From: a virus
Taxonomy: Duplodnaviria; Heunggongvirae; Uroviricota; Caudoviricetes
Length of the DNA stretch: 64,000 bases
Strand: one strand, 5' to 3'
Virus record (IMG/VR): IMGVR_UViG_3300013126_000015
Span: 22,818 to 86,817 of that record
Shown: positions 7,528 to 34,089 of the stretch, one piece after another
Numbering within the stretch: the stretch's first letter is position 1
How the letters are laid out: each line of letters starts with the position of its first letter
Made by a program: the position numbers and the translations under genes
Notes under the pieces: model-generated
Database searches by the model: none
Seen by the model: the letters and a program-made list of their open reading frames with translations, nothing else
What the model was told of the DNA's origin: nothing

Positions 7528-7704
7528 ATGACCACTCAATATAATACAATGTCAGATGATGAACTGGACACCATGGGCAATGGTAATGATAATCATATCA
7601 TTGACCTTGGGGATGATGATGACGATAATGATTACTATTCAGATGATAGTGATAGTGACATTGTATTCGCGAATGATTACTTCGAATGTGATAACGATTT
7701 CTAA
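7528..7704 (+). CDS. small highly acidic protein (58 aa, D-rich)
   Basis: unlisted ORF; followed by hairpin terminator. Confidence 0.35.
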   Translation: MTTQYNTMSDDELDTMGNGNDNHIIDLGDDDDDNDYYSDDSDSDIVFANDYFECDNDF

Positions 7705-7749: not shown

Positions 7750-8030
7750 ATTATAAAATAATTTTAGATGCTTGGTATTATACTTGCATAAAATTATTTT
7801 TTTATTTTTTGAGAGCTTGGTGTATTATATTTAAAATAATACTTGCAAATTTTCAAACTACTTGCAAATTTTTCAAATAATTCTTTCCAAAAATAAATTC
7901 CAAAAATAAATTCTAAAATAACCCCCAAAATAAAACTTACCCCTGCCAGAAATGTCCTATACCAGAAAAATACCCCCCACCCTCAAAAATTGTCGAAGTA
8001 TATTTTTTGTATACATGCGGAAATTTAGTT
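7750..8030. repeat. non-coding AT-rich region with direct repeats (GCTTGGT..TATTATA x2; TACTTGCA(A/T)A x3; CCAAAAATAAATT x2) and C-rich G-poor tract
   Basis: read directly; lies between convergent genes. Confidence 0.6.
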
Positions 8031-8414
8031 TTATGTAAATGCCACTTTAAATATATTTTCAGCTAGTATAGATTTGATTATTTGATTAAAATTTTGTTCA
8101 GAGAAAGTAAAATCAAAGGTACGATTATTAAATGTTGCGTTTATTCTAGGATGATTATTAATAAAATAAATTTGCCAGCGAATATAAAATGAATATCTTT
8201 TTCCCATACTAGATGGATTAGAATAGAACTCATAGTTATGACTAATGCTACCATGTTCTGCATTGCAGGCAAATAGTACTAAATTATTACTTGATAATAA
8301 ATTATTCATATTGGCTAGTAATTCATCCATTTTATTATCGATTAGTAATTGAATGTTGGTAGAGTCTTTATTGGCTTTAGAAATTAAATATTCATTCATT
8401 GAGTTGGTTAGCAT
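8031..8414 (-). CDS. hypothetical protein (127 aa)
   Basis: ATG ORF; extended -10 TGCTATAAT at 8450-8458 upstream. Confidence 0.45.
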   Translation of the reverse strand: MLTNSMNEYLISKANKDSTNIQLLIDNKMDELLANMNNLLSSNNLVLFACNAEHGSISHNYEFYSNPSSMGKRYSFYIRWQIYFINNHPRINATFNNRTFDFTFSEQNFNQIIKSILAENIFKVAFT

Positions 8415-8449
8415 ATTGAATTACTCCGTTTTGTTTAAGGTATGATGTT

Positions 8450-8458
8450 ATTATAGCA
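8450..8458 (-). promoter_or_regulatory. extended -10 element TGCTATAAT for gene 8031..8414
   Basis: read directly on minus strand. Confidence 0.4.
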
Positions 8459-8574
8459 AGGTATCAGTCTAATGACAAGTAGTAAAATCATCCTGGAAAA
8501 TAGAAAAGGTAAAAAAGTATAAGTACCCGATAAAAAAATTATCGAGCTATATTTTTTGTATACATACGGAAAAT

Positions 8575-9159
8575 TTATTTATAGGTAAACAAACTACTGA
8601 AATAATTATCTTCTTTTTGTGGTGTTGAGAATGAGTAATCATACTCTAATCCATCTGCACAAACGATATTAATAAATTTAGTAGTATTTGATTTTAATTT
8701 GAACATTGCGATCAACCCTTTTTTGGAACGATGTGATCTTGAAAGTTCCATGATACCAAAATCTTTATTGCCGCTTTTTTTATAGATAATGATATCATCA
8801 TCATTAACCATATATAATCGTTTAATGGTTTCGATACAGTTATCGAACATTAGGTCAACGCCATAAATGGTTGATAGTGCGGTTTCATAATCTATCCCAT
8901 TTTCCATTTTCTTTATTAATATTTCAGATAGGAATTGACCATCACCGCATGTTGGATCGAGGAATGTTTTTTTAGGATTGGTGAATAGTTCAAGAGGTAA
9001 TTGATTTAGCATTTCTTGAACTAATTTAGTAGGGGTAAAAACTTCACCGGTAGATTTTATTCTAGTTTTTTCACGTTCGACACCTGACATATAATCACGA
9101 TTTCTAGCATGGTCTATGATATTGTTTAACATTGTCTTATCCATGTTTATTGAGTTCAT
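8575..9159 (-). CDS. N6-adenine methyltransferase-like protein, short paralog (motif X FTP + motif I DPTCGDGQFL, no NPPY)
   Basis: SAM-binding motif I; N-terminus paralogous to 9196..10377. Confidence 0.5.
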   Translation of the reverse strand: MNSINMDKTMLNNIIDHARNRDYMSGVEREKTRIKSTGEVFTPTKLVQEMLNQLPLELFTNPKKTFLDPTCGDGQFLSEILIKKMENGIDYETALSTIYGVDLMFDNCIETIKRLYMVNDDDIIIYKKSGNKDFGIMELSRSHRSKKGLIAMFKLKSNTTKFINIVCADGLEYDYSFSTPQKEDNYFSSLFTYK

Positions 9160-9165
9160 GATTAA

Positions 9166-9194
9166 AGTATATCAGGTATTTTATTGATTGTCAA
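9166..9194 (-). promoter_or_regulatory. sigma70-type promoter (minus strand TTGACA 9194-9189, TATACT 9171-9166)
   Basis: 17-nt spacer. Confidence 0.5.
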
Positions 9195-9195
9195 T

Positions 9196-10377
9196 TTATT
9201 TTACAGTTGATTCGATATAATCAATTTCTTTTTGTGTTAAGTTAAAGTGTTGGTAAAGTTCTTCATCAGTCCATGATTTTGTTAAATCAATATCAGGAAT
9301 TTGTTCAAATAATGATTTTGAGTTCGGGGTATTTGTTTTAACCGATTTAATCAATGTTTTAATGGTATTGGTTTCCAGATATTGTTTTAAATTTATAGAT
9401 TCAATTTCAGATGATGTTGTTAAGAACACTACAGAATACCCACCAACATGATTAACATCGGCAACCTTAACGGCACCAATATTATTAAATGCCCCCATGT
9501 TTGGCAACACCACTTTAAATAATCCCTTTCCAGTTATTTCATTACCAACTGTAATAATACTAGTATTATATTTTTCACCTTGTTTACCAACTCCTGTTAT
9601 AAAAACATCCCCAGTTGTTTGTTCATTAACTTTATTAAGGTTTAATTTGCCGCGCAACCATCTAGTACCTAAATTTTTTGTGGTGTCAAATTTTGTAATA
9701 AATTTAGTTTGAGTATTATTTTCAGATAATATCATTGAATCTGTTAAATTAAATAGTTCTGTGTTGTGGTTAATATCGGTGACCTTGCAATCATCATTGT
9801 CATTTTTTGTCAACAAAAAATGACAAGTTCTCATATTTACGTTGAACCACTTATCACCATGAAAGACTAAATTATTTAATTTAGCGTCATATAAAAATTT
9901 TTTCAATTTTGAAGGTGATGGTCCAGTCCATGCAGATGGTATGACCAATGAAACGATGTTATTAGATAGTTCTACTGATTTATATACAAATTCTGCGGCT
10001 AAATCAATGCTATTAGTTGAATTTCCTTCTTTTCCTTGATAAGGTGGGTTACCTAATACGACATCGAATTTCATGTTAATATCTCCTAAATCTTTAATTA
10101 CGTTCAACCCAATTTTATGAGCGACTACATCTTTAGCAAGGTTGTCTACATATATATGTATTCTGCTTGCTGGTATATTATAATTATACACCAAACTAAT
10201 GGCAAATTCAAGATTAAATAACACTAAAATTGAATTTTTATTTGGAAGGGATGGGATTTGCTCAATCATTTCATTGACTAATTCCAATGGTGTAAAGATT
10301 TCATGAGAACCGGCAAACATGCCTGCTTCTAATTGGATCTTATAACCACGAAACATATCTTCAACTCTAGTGCTCAT
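9196..10377 (-). CDS. gamma-class N6-adenine DNA methyltransferase-like (DVVLGNPPYQ motif IV, FTP motif X)
   Basis: NPPY catalytic motif; motif I degenerate (no glycines). Confidence 0.6.
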   Translation of the reverse strand: MSTRVEDMFRGYKIQLEAGMFAGSHEIFTPLELVNEMIEQIPSLPNKNSILVLFNLEFAISLVYNYNIPASRIHIYVDNLAKDVVAHKIGLNVIKDLGDINMKFDVVLGNPPYQGKEGNSTNSIDLAAEFVYKSVELSNNIVSLVIPSAWTGPSPSKLKKFLYDAKLNNLVFHGDKWFNVNMRTCHFLLTKNDNDDCKVTDINHNTELFNLTDSMILSENNTQTKFITKFDTTKNLGTRWLRGKLNLNKVNEQTTGDVFITGVGKQGEKYNTSIITVGNEITGKGLFKVVLPNMGAFNNIGAVKVADVNHVGGYSVVFLTTSSEIESINLKQYLETNTIKTLIKSVKTNTPNSKSLFEQIPDIDLTKSWTDEELYQHFNLTQKEIDYIESTVK

Positions 10378-10406
10378 ATTGTTCTCCTTATTTAAAGTAT
10401 AATTAA

Positions 10407-10435
10407 ATTATACCTCAATTATAGTAGATTGGCAA
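10407..10435 (-). promoter_or_regulatory. sigma70-type promoter (TTGCCA 10435-10430, TATAAT 10412-10407)
   Basis: 17-nt spacer, AAGGAG SD before ATG 10377. Confidence 0.5.
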
Positions 10436-10992
10436 GTTAATTCTTTTAAAAATAATTCCCAAAATGGTATATTCATATCCACTAGCTGTGCTAGTTGAGC
10501 ATATCCCAATACTTGTATTTTATTATGATACATATCATTTAATATATCTTGACGTAATTCTAATGCTGTGGTAAACAAAGTCATATTTACTGGTTGCATA
10601 TAATACATACACATTGACTTTGCGACAAAGTTACTGATATGATCTTCGTTGGCTGTCAATTGATACTTAACATCATTTCGGAATTTTATTTGCACAGTAT
10701 GATTGGTACTGTCGTGGCTTTTGCCAACACCATCAACCCCCATATCAGGACCATCAACTAAAGAATCCCATGGACAGTAATCGATGATATTGATACGTTT
10801 ATCGATTGGACTGCAGTTGATCAATACTTCAACCAATGCTTCAAATCCATCACCACGATATGTTTCTGGTTCCCACATATCTGGTTGTTGTAAACTTTGG
10901 GTTGTTATACGTTTCATGAAAGTACTTAATTTTGTACAACCATTTAACAATGCAACAGGATCATAACAGGTATTTTTGAATCTATGTTTCAT
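10408..10992 (-). CDS. Mrr-like restriction endonuclease domain protein (FEALV...GVDGVG...VQIK)
   Basis: Mrr_cat-like PD-(D/E)xK pattern. Confidence 0.4.
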   Translation of the reverse strand: MKHRFKNTCYDPVALLNGCTKLSTFMKRITTQSLQQPDMWEPETYRGDGFEALVEVLINCSPIDKRINIIDYCPWDSLVDGPDMGVDGVGKSHDSTNHTVQIKFRNDVKYQLTANEDHISNFVAKSMCMYYMQPVNMTLFTTALELRQDILNDMYHNKIQVLGYAQLAQLVDMNIPFWELFLKELTCQSTIIEV

Positions 10993-11016
10993 TATTATCT
11001 CCTAAAGTATAATTTT

Positions 11017-11044
11017 ATTATACCAGATAATTAAAACATGTCAA
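11017..11044 (-). promoter_or_regulatory. sigma70-type promoter (TTGACA 11044-11039, TATAAT 11022-11017)
   Basis: 16-nt spacer. Confidence 0.5.
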
Positions 11045-12566
11045 GAAAATTATCAAACGATGGTGTTATTGGATTTGTTGGTTCTGGTGCAATTTCATCG
11101 AATAGTGACAGAAACATATTAAATGCTTGAGTTTTTTTATGTGATGATAATTGTGCCATATCGTCAAAGAAATCATTTGTTTCAATTTCATGAAATATAT
11201 CTTGCAACCACCATAAACTTCTATTATCAGTATCGGTATGATATGCATCTTCGATTTGGTTTTGATCTTTGGCATGTAAAGATTTCCAATTGGTTTCTTT
11301 TACATTTTCGATATTGATAGGATACCCAGCTTTACGAATAGCATGTACATATTCCCGAACAATTTCACGACCATCAGTATCACCGTTGACAACTGATACT
11401 GATATCCATGCTTGTTTTTTCTTTGATGGGTCTGGTTTATATACCCGAACAGCTCTACCAATTGTTTGTATCATCTTAGCTAATCCCATATTACGTAGGA
11501 TGCAAACACCGGTAATACCATCAACGTCGATTCCTTCACTCAAAATATCATAGTGAAAGATTAAACAGTTACGACCATCAATTTTAATTTGATTCAAGAA
11601 ATCAGTTCTTGATCTGCATTGTACTCCATTGATACATTCTCCATGTTTACTAGTCACCGTACATATATCATGGTCAGGTAATATATCATGGATTTTATCA
11701 ATATTATCCATTACAGTTTTTACATCATTAGTACCATTCAATGCAAATAATATTTTGCTAAAACCTAATTCTGGCGCAGTTAATTTATGTTGTTCTGATG
11801 CGAGTGCTATTACTTTACTGACGATGGTTTGTTGTTCAACATCATCCCGTTCTTTACCTCGAACATCAGTAGTGTTCGGAATATCACTATACATGATATG
11901 TAATCTCGGAGCAACTATTATTCCACGGTCGATCAATACTGCCGGTTCAATCTCGTATATCCGTTCACCATAAACATTGGTATTATTAAGACCCCTACCG
12001 GTTTCACTTGCTGTAAATTTTTCAGTTGCAGTAAAGAATAATTTAACTCTACCATTCAATTCCACAATACTTTTGTGGAATTCTTCAGCTACACAATATT
12101 GACTTTCATCTGCAATGATAGTATCAAAATCAATACCTTTTAATTTATAACTGCTATGGTACGTGCTAAAGATAACCAAATCTTTACCCATGCGACTAGC
12201 ACGGGCAATTTCATCAATGACTACTTGTTCGCTAGTTGTTGATTTTTCACTCCATTTAACCTTAGTGTAATCTGGTTCATGTTTACCACTATGGAAAGCT
12301 AATCCAAGATATTCTCGTGATGTAATAAAACCACGAATATCTTTAGCTAATTGATTACTTAACATGATTCTAGGCGATATTACTAAAGTAACGCCATGTT
12401 TGCGATTTTTATTCATCTGATGTTCAATAATCATTGCTTCTATCAATGTTTTGCCACCACCAGTAGGGATAACGATGCGTCCAGTTGTTAATCCATGATT
12501 GCGCTTAATCGAAGATACCGTTGCATTGTATGCTTCTTGTTGATGCTGTCTAGGTATGATTTTCAT
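11031..12566 (-). CDS. SF2 DNA helicase, ResIII/restriction Res-subunit-like (PTGGGKT, DESQ, TAT, QTIGRAVR motifs)
   Basis: helicase motifs I, II, III, VI read from translation. Confidence 0.7.
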   Translation of the reverse strand: MKIIPRQHQQEAYNATVSSIKRNHGLTTGRIVIPTGGGKTLIEAMIIEHQMNKNRKHGVTLVISPRIMLSNQLAKDIRGFITSREYLGLAFHSGKHEPDYTKVKWSEKSTTSEQVVIDEIARASRMGKDLVIFSTYHSSYKLKGIDFDTIIADESQYCVAEEFHKSIVELNGRVKLFFTATEKFTASETGRGLNNTNVYGERIYEIEPAVLIDRGIIVAPRLHIMYSDIPNTTDVRGKERDDVEQQTIVSKVIALASEQHKLTAPELGFSKILFALNGTNDVKTVMDNIDKIHDILPDHDICTVTSKHGECINGVQCRSRTDFLNQIKIDGRNCLIFHYDILSEGIDVDGITGVCILRNMGLAKMIQTIGRAVRVYKPDPSKKKQAWISVSVVNGDTDGREIVREYVHAIRKAGYPINIENVKETNWKSLHAKDQNQIEDAYHTDTDNRSLWWLQDIFHEIETNDFFDDMAQLSSHKKTQAFNMFLSLFDEIAPEPTNPITPSFDNFLDMF

Positions 12567-12606
12567 ACTTGCTCCAATGGATTTATAGTATTTAAGATAT
12601 AATTAT

Positions 12607-12635
12607 AATATACCAAAACTTCATAACCATGTCAA
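12607..12635 (-). promoter_or_regulatory. sigma70-type promoter (TTGACA 12635-12630, TATATT 12612-12607)
   Basis: 17-nt spacer. Confidence 0.55.
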
Positions 12636-12718
12636 GAAGAAAATTCACTATAAAATAGAAAAGAATAATTTCATGGGTCCCATCCCCTAAAAAAAATTTC
12701 GCCGCCGATTTTTTTGTG

Positions 12719-13102
12719 TTATATAGGGGAAAAATTTTTAACTAATTTATTTGGATAGAAAGAAACGATATCTGCAGTATATATTGGAATATTATTTATG
12801 GTGAAGGTAGGTTGAGTATAAGGGTTATAGTAAATGATATTGTTGGAATTAATATTGATGAAAGAGAACAGGTAACCTTGAACACCTGCATGGACATTTT
12901 TTTTATTTTCTTTGATTACTCTTTGTCTACCTTTTTCGGATACTTTGAAAGTACAATTGGAAAGGGTTAGGTTTTGAGTATGGGCGATTACTTTATTTTT
13001 ATGTTTTATAGACCAGCAAGATTTGTGTATATTCCAGTATACGAATACTTTGGTACCATATAGAGAAGGAGGGATAGTATTATAGAAAGGGATGTTATTC
13101 AT
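12719..13102 (-). CDS. hypothetical protein (127 aa)
   Basis: ORF; ATGA overlap with next gene. Confidence 0.4.
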   Translation of the reverse strand: MNNIPFYNTIPPSLYGTKVFVYWNIHKSCWSIKHKNKVIAHTQNLTLSNCTFKVSEKGRQRVIKENKKNVHAGVQGYLFSFININSNNIIYYNPYTQPTFTINNIPIYTADIVSFYPNKLVKNFSPI

Positions 13103-13305
13103 AATGTTAAAAGGAACATGGTGATATGGTGTTCATCGCCTTCTAATACTCCCCAATATCCACTATCATGTTGAGTTTTGCATTCTGAATAAGACAGGTG
13201 GTATTGTTGCTGGATAATATTGTTCCACTCATGCAATCGTCGTTTACTATGACCTAACTTTTTCAATAATATATTCCATTGGTCTGATGATAGGTAATAT
13301 TTCAT
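13099..13305 (-). CDS. tandem paralog family I small protein (MKYYLS...EGDEHHITMFLLTL)
   Basis: conserved N- and C-terminal motifs shared with neighbours. Confidence 0.55.
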   Translation of the reverse strand: MKYYLSSDQWNILLKKLGHSKRRLHEWNNIIQQQYHLSYSECKTQHDSGYWGVLEGDEHHITMFLLTL

Positions 13306-25121: not shown

Positions 25122-27626
25122 TTATTTACCGTTATCAACGATAATACTTGTTGAATATGTGATACCACCTAAAACATAACCTTTAGTTGAATCAGCATCA
25201 AAACCAATTCCGAAAGATTTAGCGGTACCTTTCCAAGATATTTTAGCACAATCAAGGACGGTTACCTGTTTAGTACCAATTGTAACAACATTACCATTTA
25301 CCGCAGTGATCTTAGCATGAATATCACTTGCTGATTTAGCACCAGCTGGTGTTACACAACTTCCAGCAGGAACTGGGGTTGGTGCTAATGTAGGCACTGG
25401 GGTGCTAGTTGGTGCAGCAGTTGGGACCGGTGTAGCAGTAGGTGCAACTGTTGGTACAGGTGTTGAAGTAGGAATTGCTGTTGGCACTGGAGTGCTAGTA
25501 GGCAATGGGGTACTTGTAGGTACAGCTGTAGGCACCGGTGTAGCTGTAGGAGCAACAGTTGGAACCGGAGTAGCAGTTGCAACGACTGGAGCTGGATCTA
25601 ACGTAATAGTAGTGGCTTCACAGAATACACCAGTTTGATCTTTAACACCAGCATATGTTGCTAATGATCCAGCAGCAAACGTACCTGTCCCGCCAACTAC
25701 GACACCAGTATAATGGACCATTGCGTTTGCCGTAGTAAATGCAGGGTTTGCACCTCTTAATTGAGTGAAACCGGTAATCGGTTCTTGAACACCAGAACAC
25801 GCAGGAGTATTAATAGTCAAATCCAATGTTTCAGATGCAGCAGTTCCAGCAGAATCGGTCAAATCAAATTGAATCGGATAAACACCACTGGTTCCTTGTG
25901 TACCATTAGTATTATCTGGAGCGGCTGGTGTGCCGTACAATTGAATACCATCAAATAACAAACCATTTGGAAGTGGTAAACTAACTGCATTAATAGCAAT
26001 GGTATAAGGAGCGATGCCACCAGTTACACTAATCGGTGTATTAGGCATTGCAACACCTTCAGTCAACACTGGAAGACCTAGAGTAGTAAATGCTAATGCT
26101 GGAACAGGAACAACTACTGGAGCTGGTTGACCATTAGCTAACAATACTTGAACTGTATAAGCTTTAGTAGAAACATTACCATCAGTATCAGTTACATTGA
26201 TAGAAAAGTCATATTTACCAGGAACAGTTGGAGTACCTTCAACAATACCACTATCCAACCCAACAGTCAACCCATCAGGAACTTGACCAGTTGTAGTGAT
26301 TTTATATGGAGAATTACCACCATAAACTGTAGATAATGGAGCCATTTTAGTGTTAACTTTAATATCAGCAATTGCTTCAGCTTGAGTCAATGGCATAACG
26401 TCATTGAAACCAACCATGTTTTCAGAGATAAAGTCACCTACAACAACTACAGCAGAACAATCATAAGAATAACTATCACCTTGCGTATCAGTAATAGTTA
26501 CTGCATTTAATGATGCCGCACCATGTTTACCATCTGGACCAACAGTATCACACATTTGTTCATGTGTTTCACCATCAAATGACCCAGTTGTAGCTGAACC
26601 AGTTGCAGCATTTACGCCAGATGTTAGAGCAGGATCACCATTACCAAATCTGAAGTAGGTATATTTGCGAGTAATAACTTCATCATTAGCTACTTTTTCA
26701 GCAGCACCTACATGTTCTTCTTTAGGTTGTGGTTTACAGACTTTTGGATCTGGATCAACGCAAGCTTTAGCTTTAGGTGGCTTTTGAATCAAATACCATT
26801 CAGATTCAACTTGATTAGGTTCACCATTTTGCCAATCAGGAAGACCATCACCATTTTTATCTTCATTAACTAATGCTTTAACCAATTGGTCAGCACCACC
26901 AGCAACTTTTTTACCATGTACTGACGTTTTTTCAACTCTCAACCAAACAGGTTCACCCCATTGAGCAGGAGCTGGTTCAACTTTTTCTTTAGGAGCTTGC
27001 TGAACAGGGACTACGTTAACTACCGCAGGTTGAAGAGGAATCGGTTGAGCTGGGGCTGGTTGTACTGGAGGTGGAGCTACGAACGTTGGAATTGCCATAG
27101 TAACACCAGGAGCAGATCCACCCAAACTAGCACCACGAACAAGACCAGAGCCTTGTTGATTCAACCAATAAAATCCAACGGATTTAGGAGTACCCATTGC
27201 ACCAGTTGCGAAATGTTCACATCCTGTATCAGCAGCAGATACACAAGAATGTCCACCGGTTGACCATGTTGAAGTGTCTGCAGCAATCGTACCACGAGGA
27301 CGAACACCATTTGCATCAGGTTTCAACTCGTAATGTACGATAGCATGAATTACACCAGCAGCATCAGTATATTCACCCACAGTTGGTGCACCATAACGTG
27401 CTGAATACCATGTATAGCCAATTTGAGCAGAATGCAAACCTTCAAAGTCTTGCTCAAAACCGTATGCCATTTGACCTGTATCATTCGCGACATCAAAGTT
27501 ACCAACAGATACGGCTTGTGCACCAATACCTACACCACATTTACCAAATCCATCACATATAGTGAATGCTTCTGCAGTCGTAATAAAAAATCCCAATAAT
27601 GCCGGGATGTACTTAATATATTTCAT
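25122..27626 (-). CDS. secreted protein with signal peptide, Ig-like (He_PIG-type) domains and ~70-aa Pro/Thr-rich linker; track start 27638, ATG 27626 preferred
   Basis: MKYIKYIPALLGFFITTAEA signal; TPVPT repeats; GGAGA SD before ATG 27626; GC-richer codon usage. Confidence 0.55.
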   Translation of the reverse strand: MKYIKYIPALLGFFITTAEAFTICDGFGKCGVGIGAQAVSVGNFDVANDTGQMAYGFEQDFEGLHSAQIGYTWYSARYGAPTVGEYTDAAGVIHAIVHYELKPDANGVRPRGTIAADTSTWSTGGHSCVSAADTGCEHFATGAMGTPKSVGFYWLNQQGSGLVRGASLGGSAPGVTMAIPTFVAPPPVQPAPAQPIPLQPAVVNVVPVQQAPKEKVEPAPAQWGEPVWLRVEKTSVHGKKVAGGADQLVKALVNEDKNGDGLPDWQNGEPNQVESEWYLIQKPPKAKACVDPDPKVCKPQPKEEHVGAAEKVANDEVITRKYTYFRFGNGDPALTSGVNAATGSATTGSFDGETHEQMCDTVGPDGKHGAASLNAVTITDTQGDSYSYDCSAVVVVGDFISENMVGFNDVMPLTQAEAIADIKVNTKMAPLSTVYGGNSPYKITTTGQVPDGLTVGLDSGIVEGTPTVPGKYDFSINVTDTDGNVSTKAYTVQVLLANGQPAPVVVPVPALAFTTLGLPVLTEGVAMPNTPISVTGGIAPYTIAINAVSLPLPNGLLFDGIQLYGTPAAPDNTNGTQGTSGVYPIQFDLTDSAGTAASETLDLTINTPACSGVQEPITGFTQLRGANPAFTTANAMVHYTGVVVGGTGTFAAGSLATYAGVKDQTGVFCEATTITLDPAPVVATATPVPTVAPTATPVPTAVPTSTPLPTSTPVPTAIPTSTPVPTVAPTATPVPTAAPTSTPVPTLAPTPVPAGSCVTPAGAKSASDIHAKITAVNGNVVTIGTKQVTVLDCAKISWKGTAKSFGIGFDADSTKGYVLGGITYSTSIIVDNGK

Positions 27627-27736
27627 TAATTTCTCCATAAAAATTTAAATTGTCAGCGTCAATATTATCAGACACTAATATATATTTATGGTAATGCTAC
27701 CATAAATTCTGTGTGTTATATCAAAGATTTATAATT

Positions 27737-28687: not shown

Positions 28688-29761
28688 TTAGGTACCAGCT
28701 CTTGTACGATTCAATTTACCAATAGTAAATCCTAAATTAATATAATAATGTAATTTAATATCATCATTGTATGAAATTCTTTTTTCTGAAATACCATCTG
28801 TCAAATATATTTTTTTAATTCTACCTTTCACCCAACCGCTGGATTCATATTTTTCCAGATCATCTATTGAAATTCGTTTTTCTGTGTGTTCATTGTATAC
28901 ATATATTTTACCAGATGTTGGATTACCACGAGTCCATCCATCATTAATATATGCATTTACTTCTTCAAGTGGAACCCGTTTATATGAATTTTCACGTTTT
29001 ATATAAATCAAATCAGCTACAGTACTCGACAATTCATACCCACAATCCAAATACTCAGCAAGTTTAATAGATGGAACTTTTTTTAGTTTACCGTCCTTTT
29101 TAATAACTTTATAATCTTGCTGATTATGGTGGTATTCCCATCCATCAGAGATGTATTGTTCCAGCAGGGATTTTTTTATATATGATAGTTTACCATTTTT
29201 CTTTACAAAAATACAATCTTTAGCTGAAGAATTTCCTAGTATCCATCCACTAGCTAAATAAGAATCTACGTGATCTGGAAGAACCATTTTATTTTGGATG
29301 CCATCTGTAATATATACTCTCTTAATTCCTTTTTGTTGCCATCCTTGCTCAAGATAATAATCTACCATTTTAGGATTCACCATTTTAAATGTATGACCCT
29401 TGGATATTATAATATACCCACTTACGTCTGGAACATGTCCGCAGTTGCAATTCAAACACAAAGGAGCGTCAAAAACCTTTTTTATTTGTAATATATTTTT
29501 TTCGATTTGTATAGCAGATTCTGCATCACTTAAATAAAATAAAACTGATCTCTGATATGGAGTCCCACATTCTTTTAATTTAAGAGCTAGTTTACCAGAA
29601 CAAAAATATCGATCATTATCTAAGCATGAAGTTGAATGTTTTCCGATATAATAGTGACCTGAATCAAATTCAATATAGTACACAGTATGGTACCTTCCAT
29701 CTGTTCCAACTGTTTGGTTCGTTTGAACATTTTTAAATTTGTTAATTATATAATTTTTCAT
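28688..29761 (-). CDS. GIY-YIG homing endonuclease (Seg-like) with six C-terminal ~30-aa repeats (I(Y/F)V..DG..KRI....L..Y..SGW..G)
   Basis: YYIEF...GHYYIGK GIY-YIG motif; tandem repeats visible in translation. Confidence 0.65.
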   Translation of the reverse strand: MKNYIINKFKNVQTNQTVGTDGRYHTVYYIEFDSGHYYIGKHSTSCLDNDRYFCSGKLALKLKECGTPYQRSVLFYLSDAESAIQIEKNILQIKKVFDAPLCLNCNCGHVPDVSGYIIISKGHTFKMVNPKMVDYYLEQGWQQKGIKRVYITDGIQNKMVLPDHVDSYLASGWILGNSSAKDCIFVKKNGKLSYIKKSLLEQYISDGWEYHHNQQDYKVIKKDGKLKKVPSIKLAEYLDCGYELSSTVADLIYIKRENSYKRVPLEEVNAYINDGWTRGNPTSGKIYVYNEHTEKRISIDDLEKYESSGWVKGRIKKIYLTDGISEKRISYNDDIKLHYYINLGFTIGKLNRTRAGT

Positions 29762-29821: not shown

Positions 29822-31282
29822 CTATGCTCTAGCTCGTGATTTTACTTCGTCCCACGACTGCCGGTATTCTCTAAACCCGTCTTTGTACCACAATCTCCAT
29901 CCAGCCGCTGGAGTCAAAAAATTAAAGATATTTCCTTCTGATATAGCGTCATATACTTCAATGTCACCATTTTCATTCTCTCTGCAGCGAACTAATCCTT
30001 TTAATGATTTTTTTCCAGAATCAGTAATAGGATCTTTAATAGTAGCAACCCATTTTCCATATCTAAAATTTGCAGTTGATTTGAAACTGAAACCAAAATC
30101 ATCACGCGAACCAAAATGGGTGATACCTGCTCCAGAACCTAAGCAAAAGTTGTCCATAGCAAAGCCAGCATCAACCCACCCTTGACAAATTTCTCGAACT
30201 GTATTTACTTTTACACCATCTCCCTGTATTACACCAGTTGATGGGTGTAATACCTTGTACCCTTTATTATTAATAGTTACCCCAAAGGTAGCTTCCCAAT
30301 CTTTGCCTACTAATCCTGGTTCGATTGTCATATCTCCGGTATCTGGTCTAGCAATCATGCGCCCACCAGATGCCAAAATTCTATCTTTTAATCTAGTACC
30401 AAGATATTCTCTCACAAATCTTCTTGAATCATATGTATCAATCACTGCTGACATAAATGGTAAACCAATGCCGCGTTTATGTCTTTCCACTGCCTCAAAT
30501 AATCTATCTACTACCATAACAGCTGCACCGAAATCATCTTTATTTTCCGCATCTGAATGAGCACATGATACACTATGTTCACTCGCTTCAATAGATGAAG
30601 TTGATGGTTTATATGTTCCATACAAGCGTTTAATATACCCATTTGCTCTAATACAGTCTGACCCATCAAATAGTGCGGCATGTGCAATACCAGAGATTAC
30701 TGCTGCTTCATCTGGACTATCAGCACTTCTGTCGCCAAACTCATGCATCATGTAGTTAACATTGGTGGTGTCAGTTCCGGTAAGTTCACAGAATTCTATA
30801 AGAGTCAACCTCATTGCTCTGCAAACAGATGCAACAGTAGACATTTTCCAAATCAATGCTTGTGAAAATGTTTCAAAATAGGTTACTAACCACGCAAAAT
30901 TAGACACAGTATTAATAATACCAACTATTGGCGTTTGTGGTGCAACTATTCGGCCTTCTTCTACTCCATAAATTGCTAATGGTATTTTTCCATCAAGTTC
31001 TCGTACAATACGTTCCCATCCTTCTCTATTGAAGTGGTATCCTTGTTCAGTAACTTCAACTTCTGCTTCATCAATCATTTCCATTGTGATTCTAGTAGCT
31101 GCAAAAATTGAAGATAATAGGGTAATACCCATTGAAACAATATGGGTAGAATATGAACTTGACTTTCGTGGAACCATATTTGCATAACCATATTCGTCGC
31201 CAGTAGGTGCTTCTAGCCAGTGATTAATTTTATACCCATCTGCACACAAAATTATATTAAATGGTTTTAAATGTTCTAACAT
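29822..31282 (-). CDS. nadV: nicotinamide phosphoribosyltransferase
   Basis: full-length NAMPT-like translation; GAGGA SD. Confidence 0.75.
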   Translation of the reverse strand: MLEHLKPFNIILCADGYKINHWLEAPTGDEYGYANMVPRKSSSYSTHIVSMGITLLSSIFAATRITMEMIDEAEVEVTEQGYHFNREGWERIVRELDGKIPLAIYGVEEGRIVAPQTPIVGIINTVSNFAWLVTYFETFSQALIWKMSTVASVCRAMRLTLIEFCELTGTDTTNVNYMMHEFGDRSADSPDEAAVISGIAHAALFDGSDCIRANGYIKRLYGTYKPSTSSIEASEHSVSCAHSDAENKDDFGAAVMVVDRLFEAVERHKRGIGLPFMSAVIDTYDSRRFVREYLGTRLKDRILASGGRMIARPDTGDMTIEPGLVGKDWEATFGVTINNKGYKVLHPSTGVIQGDGVKVNTVREICQGWVDAGFAMDNFCLGSGAGITHFGSRDDFGFSFKSTANFRYGKWVATIKDPITDSGKKSLKGLVRCRENENGDIEVYDAISEGNIFNFLTPAAGWRLWYKDGFREYRQSWDEVKSRARA

Positions 31283-33054: not shown

Positions 33055-34089
33055 TCACCTGCATATTGAAACACCCCAAGTAATTATCGAAAGATGGTCC
33101 TCGAACAAATATTCCTCCATATCTAATACATCATCAATTGGAAACCACTTGGCAAATCTAGCATCATCAGATCCTTTAACTTTAGACAACGGTCCAGATG
33201 GTAATTCTATTGCATAAGCATGTGTGATAGTTCGTCCTCGCAATGATCGTGACGGTTTATCGAACACCTGCGTTCCTTTTATAGAACCTCTTAATACTGG
33301 CTCTGGTATTTTGATTTTAGTTTCTTCCCTTAACTCTCTTATAACACCATCAATCAAATATTCGGACTGGTTTACAAATCCCCCAGGAAGTGCCCATAAT
33401 CCTTTTCCAGGACTCGCTTTACGTTGCACCAATAGGACATGACCTGATTGAATCACAACAGCGTCAGTGGTCACAAAAGTGGGTGGGTATGGAGCATTGT
33501 CCCAGGATTTTTTATAACCTTGAATATGATTAAACTCATCAACCAGATTTTTATAATCATCACTTTTTGTCCACTCTCTTAAATCGTTCTGCAGTTGGGA
33601 ATCAATTAACGGTCTATCTTTCCAATTAAATATTGCTCCAGTAAATAATTGTTCCCGGACAGTGGTTGCATCAATATCAATGATATGATCGGTATTAATA
33701 AAATCCCATTGTGGGAAATAATCAATATAATAGGAAGTAGAATCTTTTTTGCAGCCCACGATACCAATTTTTGGATCGGTAATGCCACATGTTTCTTTTT
33801 TGACTATTCGTTGAACTTGTTGAATCCACTCTTGATCAACTCGGAAATCACGGATACCATGACAACTAATTCTGGATGAATCTTGTTTTGGTAGTTGATT
33901 CAGTAACATTGCAGCACGTTCATACCACTTCCACGGGTTTTTAATCGTTCGTGGTTGAAAGCTGGAGCCGAATAATACTATTACTTTATTTGAACGTTCT
34001 AATGCTGTAGTTACATTATGAACATGTGCGTGAGTTGGTGGTTGCATTCTGCCAATGTATACAATGGCATCATATTTTTGTTTTGTCAT
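33055..34089 (-). CDS. natV: bifunctional NMN adenylyltransferase / Nudix ADP-ribose pyrophosphatase
   Basis: N-terminal HxxH nucleotidyltransferase motif (PPTHAHVH) plus Nudix box (GGFVNQSEYLIDGVIRELREETK). Confidence 0.7.
   Translation of the reverse strand: MTKQKYDAIVYIGRMQPPTHAHVHNVTTALERSNKVIVLFGSSFQPRTIKNPWKWYERAAMLLNQLPKQDSSRISCHGIRDFRVDQEWIQQVQRIVKKETCGITDPKIGIVGCKKDSTSYYIDYFPQWDFINTDHIIDIDATTVREQLFTGAIFNWKDRPLIDSQLQNDLREWTKSDDYKNLVDEFNHIQGYKKSWDNAPYPPTFVTTDAVVIQSGHVLLVQRKASPGKGLWALPGGFVNQSEYLIDGVIRELREETKIKIPEPVLRGSIKGTQVFDKPSRSLRGRTITHAYAIELPSGPLSKVKGSDDARFAKWFPIDDVLDMEEYLFEDHLSIITWGVSICR

Follow-up and report, generated by a model that had tools for sequence, protein, structure and literature searches.

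In a 64,000-nucleotide stretch of a Caudoviricetes genome (positions 22,818 to 86,817 of IMG/VR virus record IMGVR_UViG_3300013126_000015; hereafter the window, in whose own numbering all positions are given), we identified a pair of minus-strand genes whose products divide between them the motifs of an N6-adenine DNA methyltransferase. The large gene (9196..10377; 393 aa) encodes an intact catalytic motif IV and a motif I devoid of glycines, while the small gene (8575..9159; 194 aa), 36 nt downstream, encodes a canonical S-adenosylmethionine (SAM)-binding motif I and neither the NPPY of motif IV nor a target-recognition domain (TRD); from both sequence and predicted structure, neither polypeptide has the full set of cofactor-binding and catalytic motifs. 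Comparison of the two families across phages suggests that the small protein is, family-wide, very probably the SAM-binding half of an enzyme, and that the two window genes probably make an active N6-adenine DNA methyltransferase together. A sequence-only reading of the same DNA had reported this complementary motif content, and its account of each protein and of their positions is borne out: many phage contigs unrelated to one another contain the pair, which is thus not a product of chance.

A phage family of putative SAM-binding half-methyltransferases

The small protein carries motif X (GEVFTP), the canonical motif I (FLDPTCGDGQFL; residues 66-77, 8929..8964 on the minus strand), motif II (YGVDL) and motif III (NIVCADGL), and stops just short of the motif IV position, without motifs IV-VIII or a TRD. 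The Pfam profile N6_Mtase aligns to it only from profile position 21 to 85 of 311, and among PHROG families it falls in phrog_4376 (E = 2e-22). Its AlphaFold2 (AF2) model, with a predicted local distance difference test (pLDDT) score of 84, is half of a Rossmann fold comprising strands β1-β3 only, in which a motif X helix is followed by β1-αA-β2-αB, a beta-hairpin insertion, β3 and a floppy tail, and in fold comparison it weakly resembles the N-terminal regions of CamA, PglX/BrxX and BsaXI. Judged by these features, the small protein is most likely the SAM-binding half of a gamma-type N6-adenine methyltransferase made as a separate protein.

Homologues of the small protein are abundant (2607 at E <= 1e-5), and the 120 listed are 49-74% identical to the query and mostly 148-210 aa long. 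A profile search of 1.84 billion cluster representatives retrieved 126 clusters (50% identity) at E <= 1e-30, nearly all of them short stand-alone proteins; the length range of the family is about 130-200 aa. Among 77 homologues, T42, P43, C71-L77 and D102 are invariant, and D68 and D169 occur in at least 90% of sequences; by analogy with M.TaqI, we take these conserved residues to be SAM contacts. Exact-pattern scans placed the family in 219 confirmed viral stretches versus 10 matches in the genomes of 185,579 species (one genome per species), a distribution which suggests that it is essentially phage-borne. Cultured phages possessing the protein include P-SSM2 (gp037), ACG-2014f (gp051), S-SKS1 (SWZG_00214), Bellamy, S-CAM7 and the Lak megaphages, and in all of them it is annotated as 'hypothetical' or, as in the Lak megaphages, not annotated.

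On the surface, a truncated methyltransferase-like open reading frame (ORF) beside a full-length one resembles a pseudogene remnant of tandem duplication, which the sequence-only reading had named as a possible objection. We give this explanation practically no credence, the conservation data refuting it: the family is very large, its SAM-binding motifs are invariant and it is under strong purifying selection, its AF2 fold is confident, and gene length, end point and operon structure are kept across distant phages. The N-terminal homology claimed for the pair is real but short (BLASTP, 14/40 identities, E = 3e-5 in a single comparison). The accompanying picture of adjacent paralogs from a recent tandem duplication must be discarded, as the similarity extends over only about 40 residues, and the small family, which is ancient, shows much stronger conservation than its partners (49-74% identity to the query among the homologues listed, versus 25-51% within the clade of the large protein). 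We also rejected the possibility that the small gene is a frameshifted N-terminus of the neighbouring methyltransferase, since it lies downstream of a complete gene and is itself followed by a terminator-like hairpin and an unrelated ORF.

A conserved glycine-less motif I in the large protein

The large protein matches the Pfam family Eco57I with 48.9 bits against a cut-off of 25.3, and its motif IV, NPPY, is found at residues 110-113 (10039..10050, minus strand). N110, P111 and P112 are invariant in an alignment of 28 sequences (A4), and in one of 45 sequences (A6) N110 and P112 remain invariant while P111 occurs in at least 90%. At the place of motif I stands the glycine-less SILVLFNLEFAISL (residues 49-62; 10192..10233, minus strand), which is evident from sequence, clade alignment and AF2 model alike; in place of the glycine-rich pattern (D/E)-P-x-x-G-x-G-x-F the protein reads ILVLFNLEFAISL. 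With family alignments as input, AF2 predicts a complete and well-packed TaqI-like domain (pLDDT 94.3; predicted template-modelling score, pTM, 0.87), including β1 (50-53), αA (56-64), β2 (73-76), β3 (92-94) and β4 (104-109), and the loop between β1 and αA, at the position of the glycine-rich SAM loop, consists of F54-N55 only. A conventional motif I elsewhere in the 393-aa protein, which would have undone the sequence-only reading, was looked for in the alignment and the AF2 model and is absent. Foldseek searches with the full-length model returned CamA (E = 1e-14), M.TaqI (E = 1e-11; TM score 0.58-0.60) and LlaBIII (E = 1e-5), consistent with a seven-stranded Rossmann-like catalytic domain followed by a C-terminal TRD. 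By profile and by model, then, the large gene encodes an M.TaqI/CamA-like fold of the gamma class of N6-adenine methyltransferases.

Around 45 homologues of roughly 390 aa share the consensus GSHxIHTPxxLVxEIL ... ILVLFNVEFVISLVY ... ITFYSDHxNK ... MKFDVVVGNPPY, and members of this clade in alignment A4 are 25-51% identical. The glycine-less motif, ILVLFNxEFVISL, is itself conserved, with E57 nearly invariant. Because the motif is kept across the clade, the loss of motif I is a conserved clade trait by sequence comparison and not random decay, which corrects the earlier impression of simple motif loss. Sister groups with 40-48% identity over the C-terminal three quarters differ in their N-termini, some having a canonical motif I (TFLDPAMGGGQFV) and others a shortened N-terminus.

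Gene neighbourhoods, partners lacking an N-half and natural fusions

ORFs were called in 160 fetched loci, which we scanned with hidden Markov models of the small family and of the N- and C-terminal parts of the large family, as well as with the helicase and the 194-aa phrog_7683 protein encoded beside the pair in the window. Of the 80 small genes found, 75 had enough upstream sequence to be evaluated, and in 68 of these viral loci an NPPY methyltransferase gene ends no more than 200 nt upstream on the same strand, overlapping the small gene in 60 of the 68 (median gap, -20 nt); for three further small genes, such a gene lies 0.4-1.6 kb upstream. Among 58 unique pairs, the partner's N-half is canonical in 22, otherwise non-canonical or shortened in 13, part of a helicase-methyltransferase fusion (1140-1290 aa) in nine, absent in six, of the window's glycine-less type in four and unclassified in four. 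The small protein is the constant element of these pairs; the partner's N-half may be canonical, degenerate or missing. Further glycine-less loci came among those fetched with the large protein, and each of the roughly 14 loci with this type of large gene also carries a small gene.

Partners without an N-half are most striking in locus L140, in which an AT-rich intergenic region precedes five tandem, diverged genes (269-295 aa) followed by a single small gene. Four of the five products begin MKFDVV.GN and the fifth has motif IV at residue 8. Further examples occur in loci L144, L123, L079 and L090, and in Prochlorococcus phage P-SSM2 the 193-aa gp036 (MKFTLAIGNPPY) overlaps gp037, the small-protein homologue. 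These partners start at motif IV and are without any SAM-binding motif; the co-operonic small protein is the only candidate donor. As a side observation, some partners carry variant catalytic tetrads, namely GNYPY in Synechococcus phage S-SKS1 SWZG_00215 (locus L164, 3150-4529) and GNIPF in place of NPPY in two of the five L140 genes (8009-9700), and from their sequences these proteins may be inactive or have another target atom. Stacking of partner genes is also seen in loci L009/L118 and L021, where one small gene is preceded by a tandem array of four to five methyltransferase paralogs, each about 380 aa long and with a canonical N-half; phages seem to stack specificities before one small subunit even where N-halves look intact.

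The two halves are also found joined in nature. ORF084c of Aeromonas phage Aeh1 (415 aa) opens with MHFDYMIANPPY, continues with a recognition domain and the C-terminal helix of the family (WTDDELFEKF), and closes with motifs X (FFTPIELV), I (FFEPSCGDGNIL), II and III. The same order, motif IV at residue 1-9 followed by a TRD and a bona fide small-family C-terminus, was identified in P0251, P0283 and P0383, giving an arrangement [IV-TRD]-[X-I-III] identical to the gene order of the split pairs. The known fusions involve catalytic halves that lack an N-half, not the full-length type of the window. In total, 31 Aeromonas and two Vibrio phage records match the small protein; the architecture was confirmed in the two records that were examined, Aeh1 (fused) and P-SSM2 (split), and most of the others align only with motifs X-II of the query. 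A search with the Aeh1 fusion sequence gave zero matches to solved structures.

These arrangements bear on whether the small protein could be an anti-defence decoy or SAM sponge, poisoning host Type I or bacteriophage exclusion (BREX) complexes or sequestering SAM. Its resemblance to the N-terminal half of HsdM-, PglX- and CamA-type enzymes, its place in a run of small genes that each have a strong sigma-70-like match upstream, and the near restriction of the family to phages would all suit such a role. What a decoy leaves unexplained is why the gene almost always sits immediately downstream of a phage NPPY gene and overlaps it, why fusions to a catalytic half occur, and why there are N-half-less partners that would otherwise be useless; we consider it very improbable.

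A candidate internal start at motif IV of the large gene

We identified a candidate internal translation start within the large gene (10072..10087, minus strand), comprising AGGAG (10083-10087), an 8-nt spacer and the ATG of M102 (10072-10074). M102 opens the sequence MKFDVVLGNPPY, and the N-half-less homologues begin at the same residue. Across 114 genes with an N-terminal extension, the codon of the motif IV methionine is ATG in 103. A Shine-Dalgarno (SD)-like core, defined as at least 4 nt of AGGAGG at a spacer of 4-12 nt, precedes 51% of the motif IV methionines, compared with 3% of other in-frame internal ATGs and 39% of annotated starts. Synonymous resampling with the peptide fixed and locus codon usage gave an expectation of 21.7 such cores before the motif IV methionine, against 53 observed; counted by 40%-identity clusters, the core is present in 17 of 32 versus 7.4 expected (P about 5e-5). 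The excess is greatest for genes with degenerate N-halves (78% versus 21% expected; 9 clusters) and extends to those with other non-canonical N-halves (60% versus 20%).

A sigma-70-like match (TTGCCA-17-TATAAT, 11/12; 10177..10205, minus strand) lies inside the large gene about 100 nt upstream of M102, and the other five matches of at least 11/12 that a consensus scan found in the region all precede gene starts. We regard this internal match as a weak indication, promoter-like matches being common in AT-rich DNA (30% GC). Translation may initiate internally at M102, a proposal that we advance tentatively and place somewhat short of probable.

A proposed two-component enzyme

Taken together, the partners that start at motif IV, the natural fusions and the enrichment of an SD-like site in genes with degenerate N-halves lead us to propose a SAM-binding half that acts in trans. 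The small protein would be the free-standing SAM-binding half (β1-β3, with motifs X, I, II and III), and the large gene would give the catalytic half (β4-β7, with NPPY) together with the TRD. Docking of the β1 edge of the small protein on the β4 edge of the catalytic half would rebuild the seven-stranded fold and with it the active site, the rejoining point between β1 and β4 being a natural switch point of the fold; circular permutation of methyltransferases with retained function has been documented (PMC7544214). Because the full-length large protein carries a folded pseudo-N-half at the docking place, we propose for the window that a short product from M102, starting with MKFDVVLGNPPY like the N-half-less homologues, most likely pairs with the small protein. 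Alternatively, the small protein might displace the pseudo-N-half of the full-length protein. Among the three options offered by the sequence-only reading, a heterodimeric enzyme or sub-functionalisation fits the linkage, the N-half-less partners and the fusions best, while we do not favour reading the small protein as a catalytically dead regulatory paralog, a description that could still apply to the full-length large protein.

Several observations weigh against this reading. The β1-β3 strands of the window's own large protein score pLDDT 94-98 in the AF2 model, and since that half is already packed, the small protein could dock on the full-length form only by displacing it. The pseudo-N-half also keeps the motif II acid, D78, through which the full-length protein could retain residual cofactor binding. 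The SD-like core shows no excess in genes with canonical N-halves (31% versus 27% expected; 13 clusters), and its enrichment elsewhere could have causes other than initiation, the sequences being interrelated and the clusters few. Furthermore, in 22 of the 58 unique pairs the partner's motif I looks canonical, and a group of gut-phage methyltransferases of about 505-540 aa is accompanied by a 215-260-aa small-like half-methyltransferase gene that lies upstream and overlaps their start (L088, L091-L094, L102-L106, L001 and phage NatCom_35866), the mirror image of the window order. In these canonical-partner and gut-phage loci the small protein is not evidently required, and complementing a missing half cannot be the whole story.

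Some of the same points would suit a large protein that is self-sufficient, with an unusual glycine-less SAM pocket, and a small protein that is an accessory such as a stimulator, dimerisation partner or regulator. Its fold is complete and confidently predicted and it retains, besides D78, the motif X residues T29-P30; moreover, the many partners with a canonical motif I should act alone, so that some other force must keep the small gene beside them. Against self-sufficiency, only two residues remain of the loop that encloses the methionine moiety of SAM, bulky N and E replace GxG, and neither the motif-IV-starting partners and fusions nor an SD enrichment specific to degenerate N-halves would find an explanation. 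We therefore rate a self-sufficient large protein as improbable.

Association with helicase and nuclease genes

The large and small genes are the third and fourth of four co-oriented minus-strand genes. The first (11031..12566; 511 aa) encodes a superfamily 2 (SF2) helicase-like ATPase with ResIII, DEAD and Helicase_C matches: ResIII (E = 1.9e-16) and DEAD (E = 2.2e-10) are supported by Pfam, Helicase_C scores 22.4 bits, just under its cut-off of 23.5, and the protein belongs to phrog_16. It also matches Type I and Type IIG restriction-enzyme models weakly, including a 1646-residue Type IIG profile. The second gene (10408..10992, minus strand; 194 aa; phrog_7683, E = 4.5e-27) encodes a probable Mrr-type PD-(D/E)xK nuclease. 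In seven homologues, G47, D48, E51, E55, D83, G85, D87, Q101 and K103 are invariant, forming the blocks GD..E...E, DxGxD and QxK that are typical of Mrr-type nucleases; searches of Pfam, NCBIfam, PADLOC and PDB sequences gave zero matches, and we treat this assignment, made by eye, as a lead only. The four-gene set recurs in Synechococcus phage ACG-2014f (gp051-gp054) and in viral loci L004, L005, L029 and L070, and the glycine-less type of large gene is accompanied by the helicase gene, and usually also by the phrog_7683 protein, in the window, ACG-2014f, L004, L005, L029, L070 and L120. Relatives exist in which a single chain of 1140-1290 aa contains both the helicase domain and the methyltransferase. 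Searches for a known defence system or NCBI family covering the module returned generic methyltransferase and helicase matches only.

As the pseudo-half is conserved and linked to these genes, the full-length large protein probably has a second role tied to the helicase and the Mrr-like nuclease. Taken further, the full-length protein could be solely an inert module that reads sequence and flips bases for the helicase and nuclease within a restriction-like machine, the small protein having other partners or an independent SAM-linked role. The co-occurrence of the glycine-less type with the SF2 helicase and usually the Mrr-like protein, the helicase-methyltransferase fusions and the weak restriction-enzyme matches of the helicase all speak for such a module. 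Yet NPPY and the FD beside it show the complete or nearly complete invariance expected of a catalytic site, a search of the 64-kb window found no other N-half-less methyltransferase gene that could serve as partner of the small protein, and the small gene is kept beside the glycine-less large type in every locus examined. An inert full-length form would in any case leave room for a methylating short isoform, and as a full account of the pair we hold it to be of low probability.

A more speculative combination, which we think unlikely, is that one large gene gives rise to two products of opposite roles that use the same recognition domain for cutting and for protection. The full-length form, unable to bind SAM, would be the sequence-reading subunit of a helicase-nuclease restriction-like machine, and the M102-393 form would join the universal small subunit as the matching protective methyltransferase. 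At the level of the family, one conserved SAM-binding subunit would serve interchangeable catalytic and recognition subunits, and present-day genomes would retain all the intermediates of a gamma-to-beta circular permutation.

Transcription signals and surrounding genes

The region is AT-rich (about 29-39% GC) and contains no transfer RNA genes, and searches of the phage collection found neither near-identical DNA nor a close relative of the window. A sigma-70-like promoter match with an extended TG (TTGACA-17-TATACT; 9166..9194, minus strand; consensus scan) precedes the small gene, its -10 element ending 7 nt before the ATG. We looked in the sequence for an SD element upstream of this ATG and found none; the messenger RNA may lack a leader, or translation may in fact begin at M6 or M10, and the JGI annotation calls a 189-aa product. 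Directly after the stop codon of the small gene lies the terminator-like hairpin (8525..8547, minus strand), a pattern match only, which is a possible end of the module transcripts. The helicase, nuclease, large and small genes and the next gene each have their own near-consensus sigma-70-like match upstream (11-12/12, most with extended TG), at 12635->12607, 11044->11017, 10435->10407, 9194->9166 and 8478->8450 on the minus strand. By these matches the interval 7800-13200 looks like a set of individually promoted genes, possibly early genes, read by the host sigma-70 RNA polymerase.

Elsewhere in the window, two minus-strand genes for salvage of nicotinamide adenine dinucleotide (NAD) were identified, one for nicotinamide phosphoribosyltransferase (NAMPT; 29822-31282; PHROG 448, E = 6e-110) and one for a NadR-like cytidylyltransferase/NUDIX protein (33055-34089; PHROG 395, E = 6e-71). 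NAD salvage genes occur in large marine and Vibrio myoviruses. Adjoining the NAMPT gene is a 357-aa ORF (28688-29761, minus strand) with weak PHROG matches to homing-endonuclease families. A slightly GC-richer stretch (37-39% GC) holds an 838-aa ORF (25122-27638, minus strand) with only a weak match to a PHROG family of unknown function; tblastn against 50,697 phage records gave zero matches to it. Finally, a plus-strand ORF of 58 aa (7528-7704; DDDDDNDYYSDDSDSD), aspartate-rich and extremely acidic, may encode a DNA-mimic-like anti-restriction protein or may be an ORF by chance.

Relation to known methyltransferases

The large protein shares with M.TaqI, CamA and other Eco57I-domain enzymes the same full-length fold, the motif order X-I-...-IV-...-TRD and NPPY, and the small protein equals the N-terminal half of such enzymes. 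Those enzymes are single polypeptides with a glycine-rich motif I, whereas here the loop is missing and a second gene encodes the putative SAM half.

Among C5-cytosine methyltransferases, M.AquI and M.EcoHK31I are natural two-polypeptide enzymes, and fragments of M.HhaI, M.BspRI, M.BsuRI and M.SssI complement each other in the laboratory (PMC3404938). As in M.AquI and M.EcoHK31I, one catalytic domain would here be spread over two polypeptides that need assembly, encoded by adjacent or nested genes. Those enzymes are split near the variable region and motifs IX-X and are single cases that form no family, whereas the present split would fall between β3 and β4 of an amino-methyltransferase, setting SAM binding apart from catalysis, with the SAM piece a conserved common subunit that follows up to five catalytic/TRD genes and with a large subunit that, in the window, also keeps a pseudo-half.

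METTL3-METTL14 is a heteromeric methyltransferase with one degenerate subunit, and Bacillus phages (SPR, phi3T, rho11s) encode multispecific C5 methyltransferases with tandem TRDs inside one enzyme. Another heteromer with a degenerate subunit is Trm6-Trm61 (PMC2175304). The window pair resembles the two heteromers in consisting of two homologous Rossmann-type proteins, one of which has apparently lost cofactor binding and would handle the substrate; in the heteromers, however, each subunit is a complete domain and the one that binds SAM has the catalytic motif as well, whereas the putative SAM-binding protein here has no catalytic half. With the Bacillus phage enzymes our system would share an economy in which one core is combined with several target-recognition modules, evading many host restriction systems, although here separate catalytic/TRD proteins would share one SAM-binding subunit.

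The gene order [IV-TRD]-[X-I-III] and the Aeh1-type fusions correspond to the order IV-TRD-I of beta-class amino-methyltransferases, although by sequence and fold these proteins are of the gamma (TaqI/Eco57I) lineage and not of the beta N6_N4_Mtase families. Circular-permutation classes of methyltransferases and a duplication model of their evolution have been described (PMC7544214, citing Jeltsch 1999), and the family shows forms that would correspond to every stage expected under that model, namely a complete enzyme with an extra N-half, a degenerate N-half, a lost N-half and re-fusion.

The module as a whole is reminiscent of Type ISP (LlaGI/LlaBIII) and Type III systems in combining an SF2 helicase-like ATPase, a probable Mrr-type nuclease and a gamma methyltransferase with a TRD, and relatives of the module fuse helicase and methyltransferase. 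It differs in that Type ISP enzymes join nuclease, motor, methyltransferase and TRD in one polypeptide, whereas the window has four separate phage genes in a different order, and in that it includes an extra, putatively SAM-binding small protein and has a nuclease assigned by eye.

In the full-text literature searched, whose coverage is incomplete so that novelty is unproven, we found no description of an amino-methyltransferase naturally split into SAM-binding and catalytic halves, nor of the small family, its arrays or its fusions. The 'split DNA methyltransferases' of PMC4335053 cite the Helicobacter pylori methylome (PMC3936762), in which we found no comparable split; 'split' refers there to frameshifted genes and a genome region.

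If the proposed division of labour is correct, it would be, as far as we have found, the first natural amino-methyltransferase split into SAM-binding and catalytic parts, and might be useful for split-enzyme targeting tools. The series of partner types would also offer a natural and testable record of how duplication and circular permutation gave rise to methyltransferase classes, and the helicase and nuclease genes found with the glycine-less type hint that phages may carry restriction-like machines. Widespread phage 'hypothetical proteins', among them P-SSM2 gp037, ACG-2014f gp051 and S-SKS1 SWZG_00214, would then be reannotated as the shared cofactor-binding subunit of a modular methyltransferase system, and truncated- or dead-looking NPPY proteins would become explicable. 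For the phages themselves, an arrangement of five catalytic/recognition genes with one SAM gene would make many methylation specificities cheap, which bears on how they evade host restriction.

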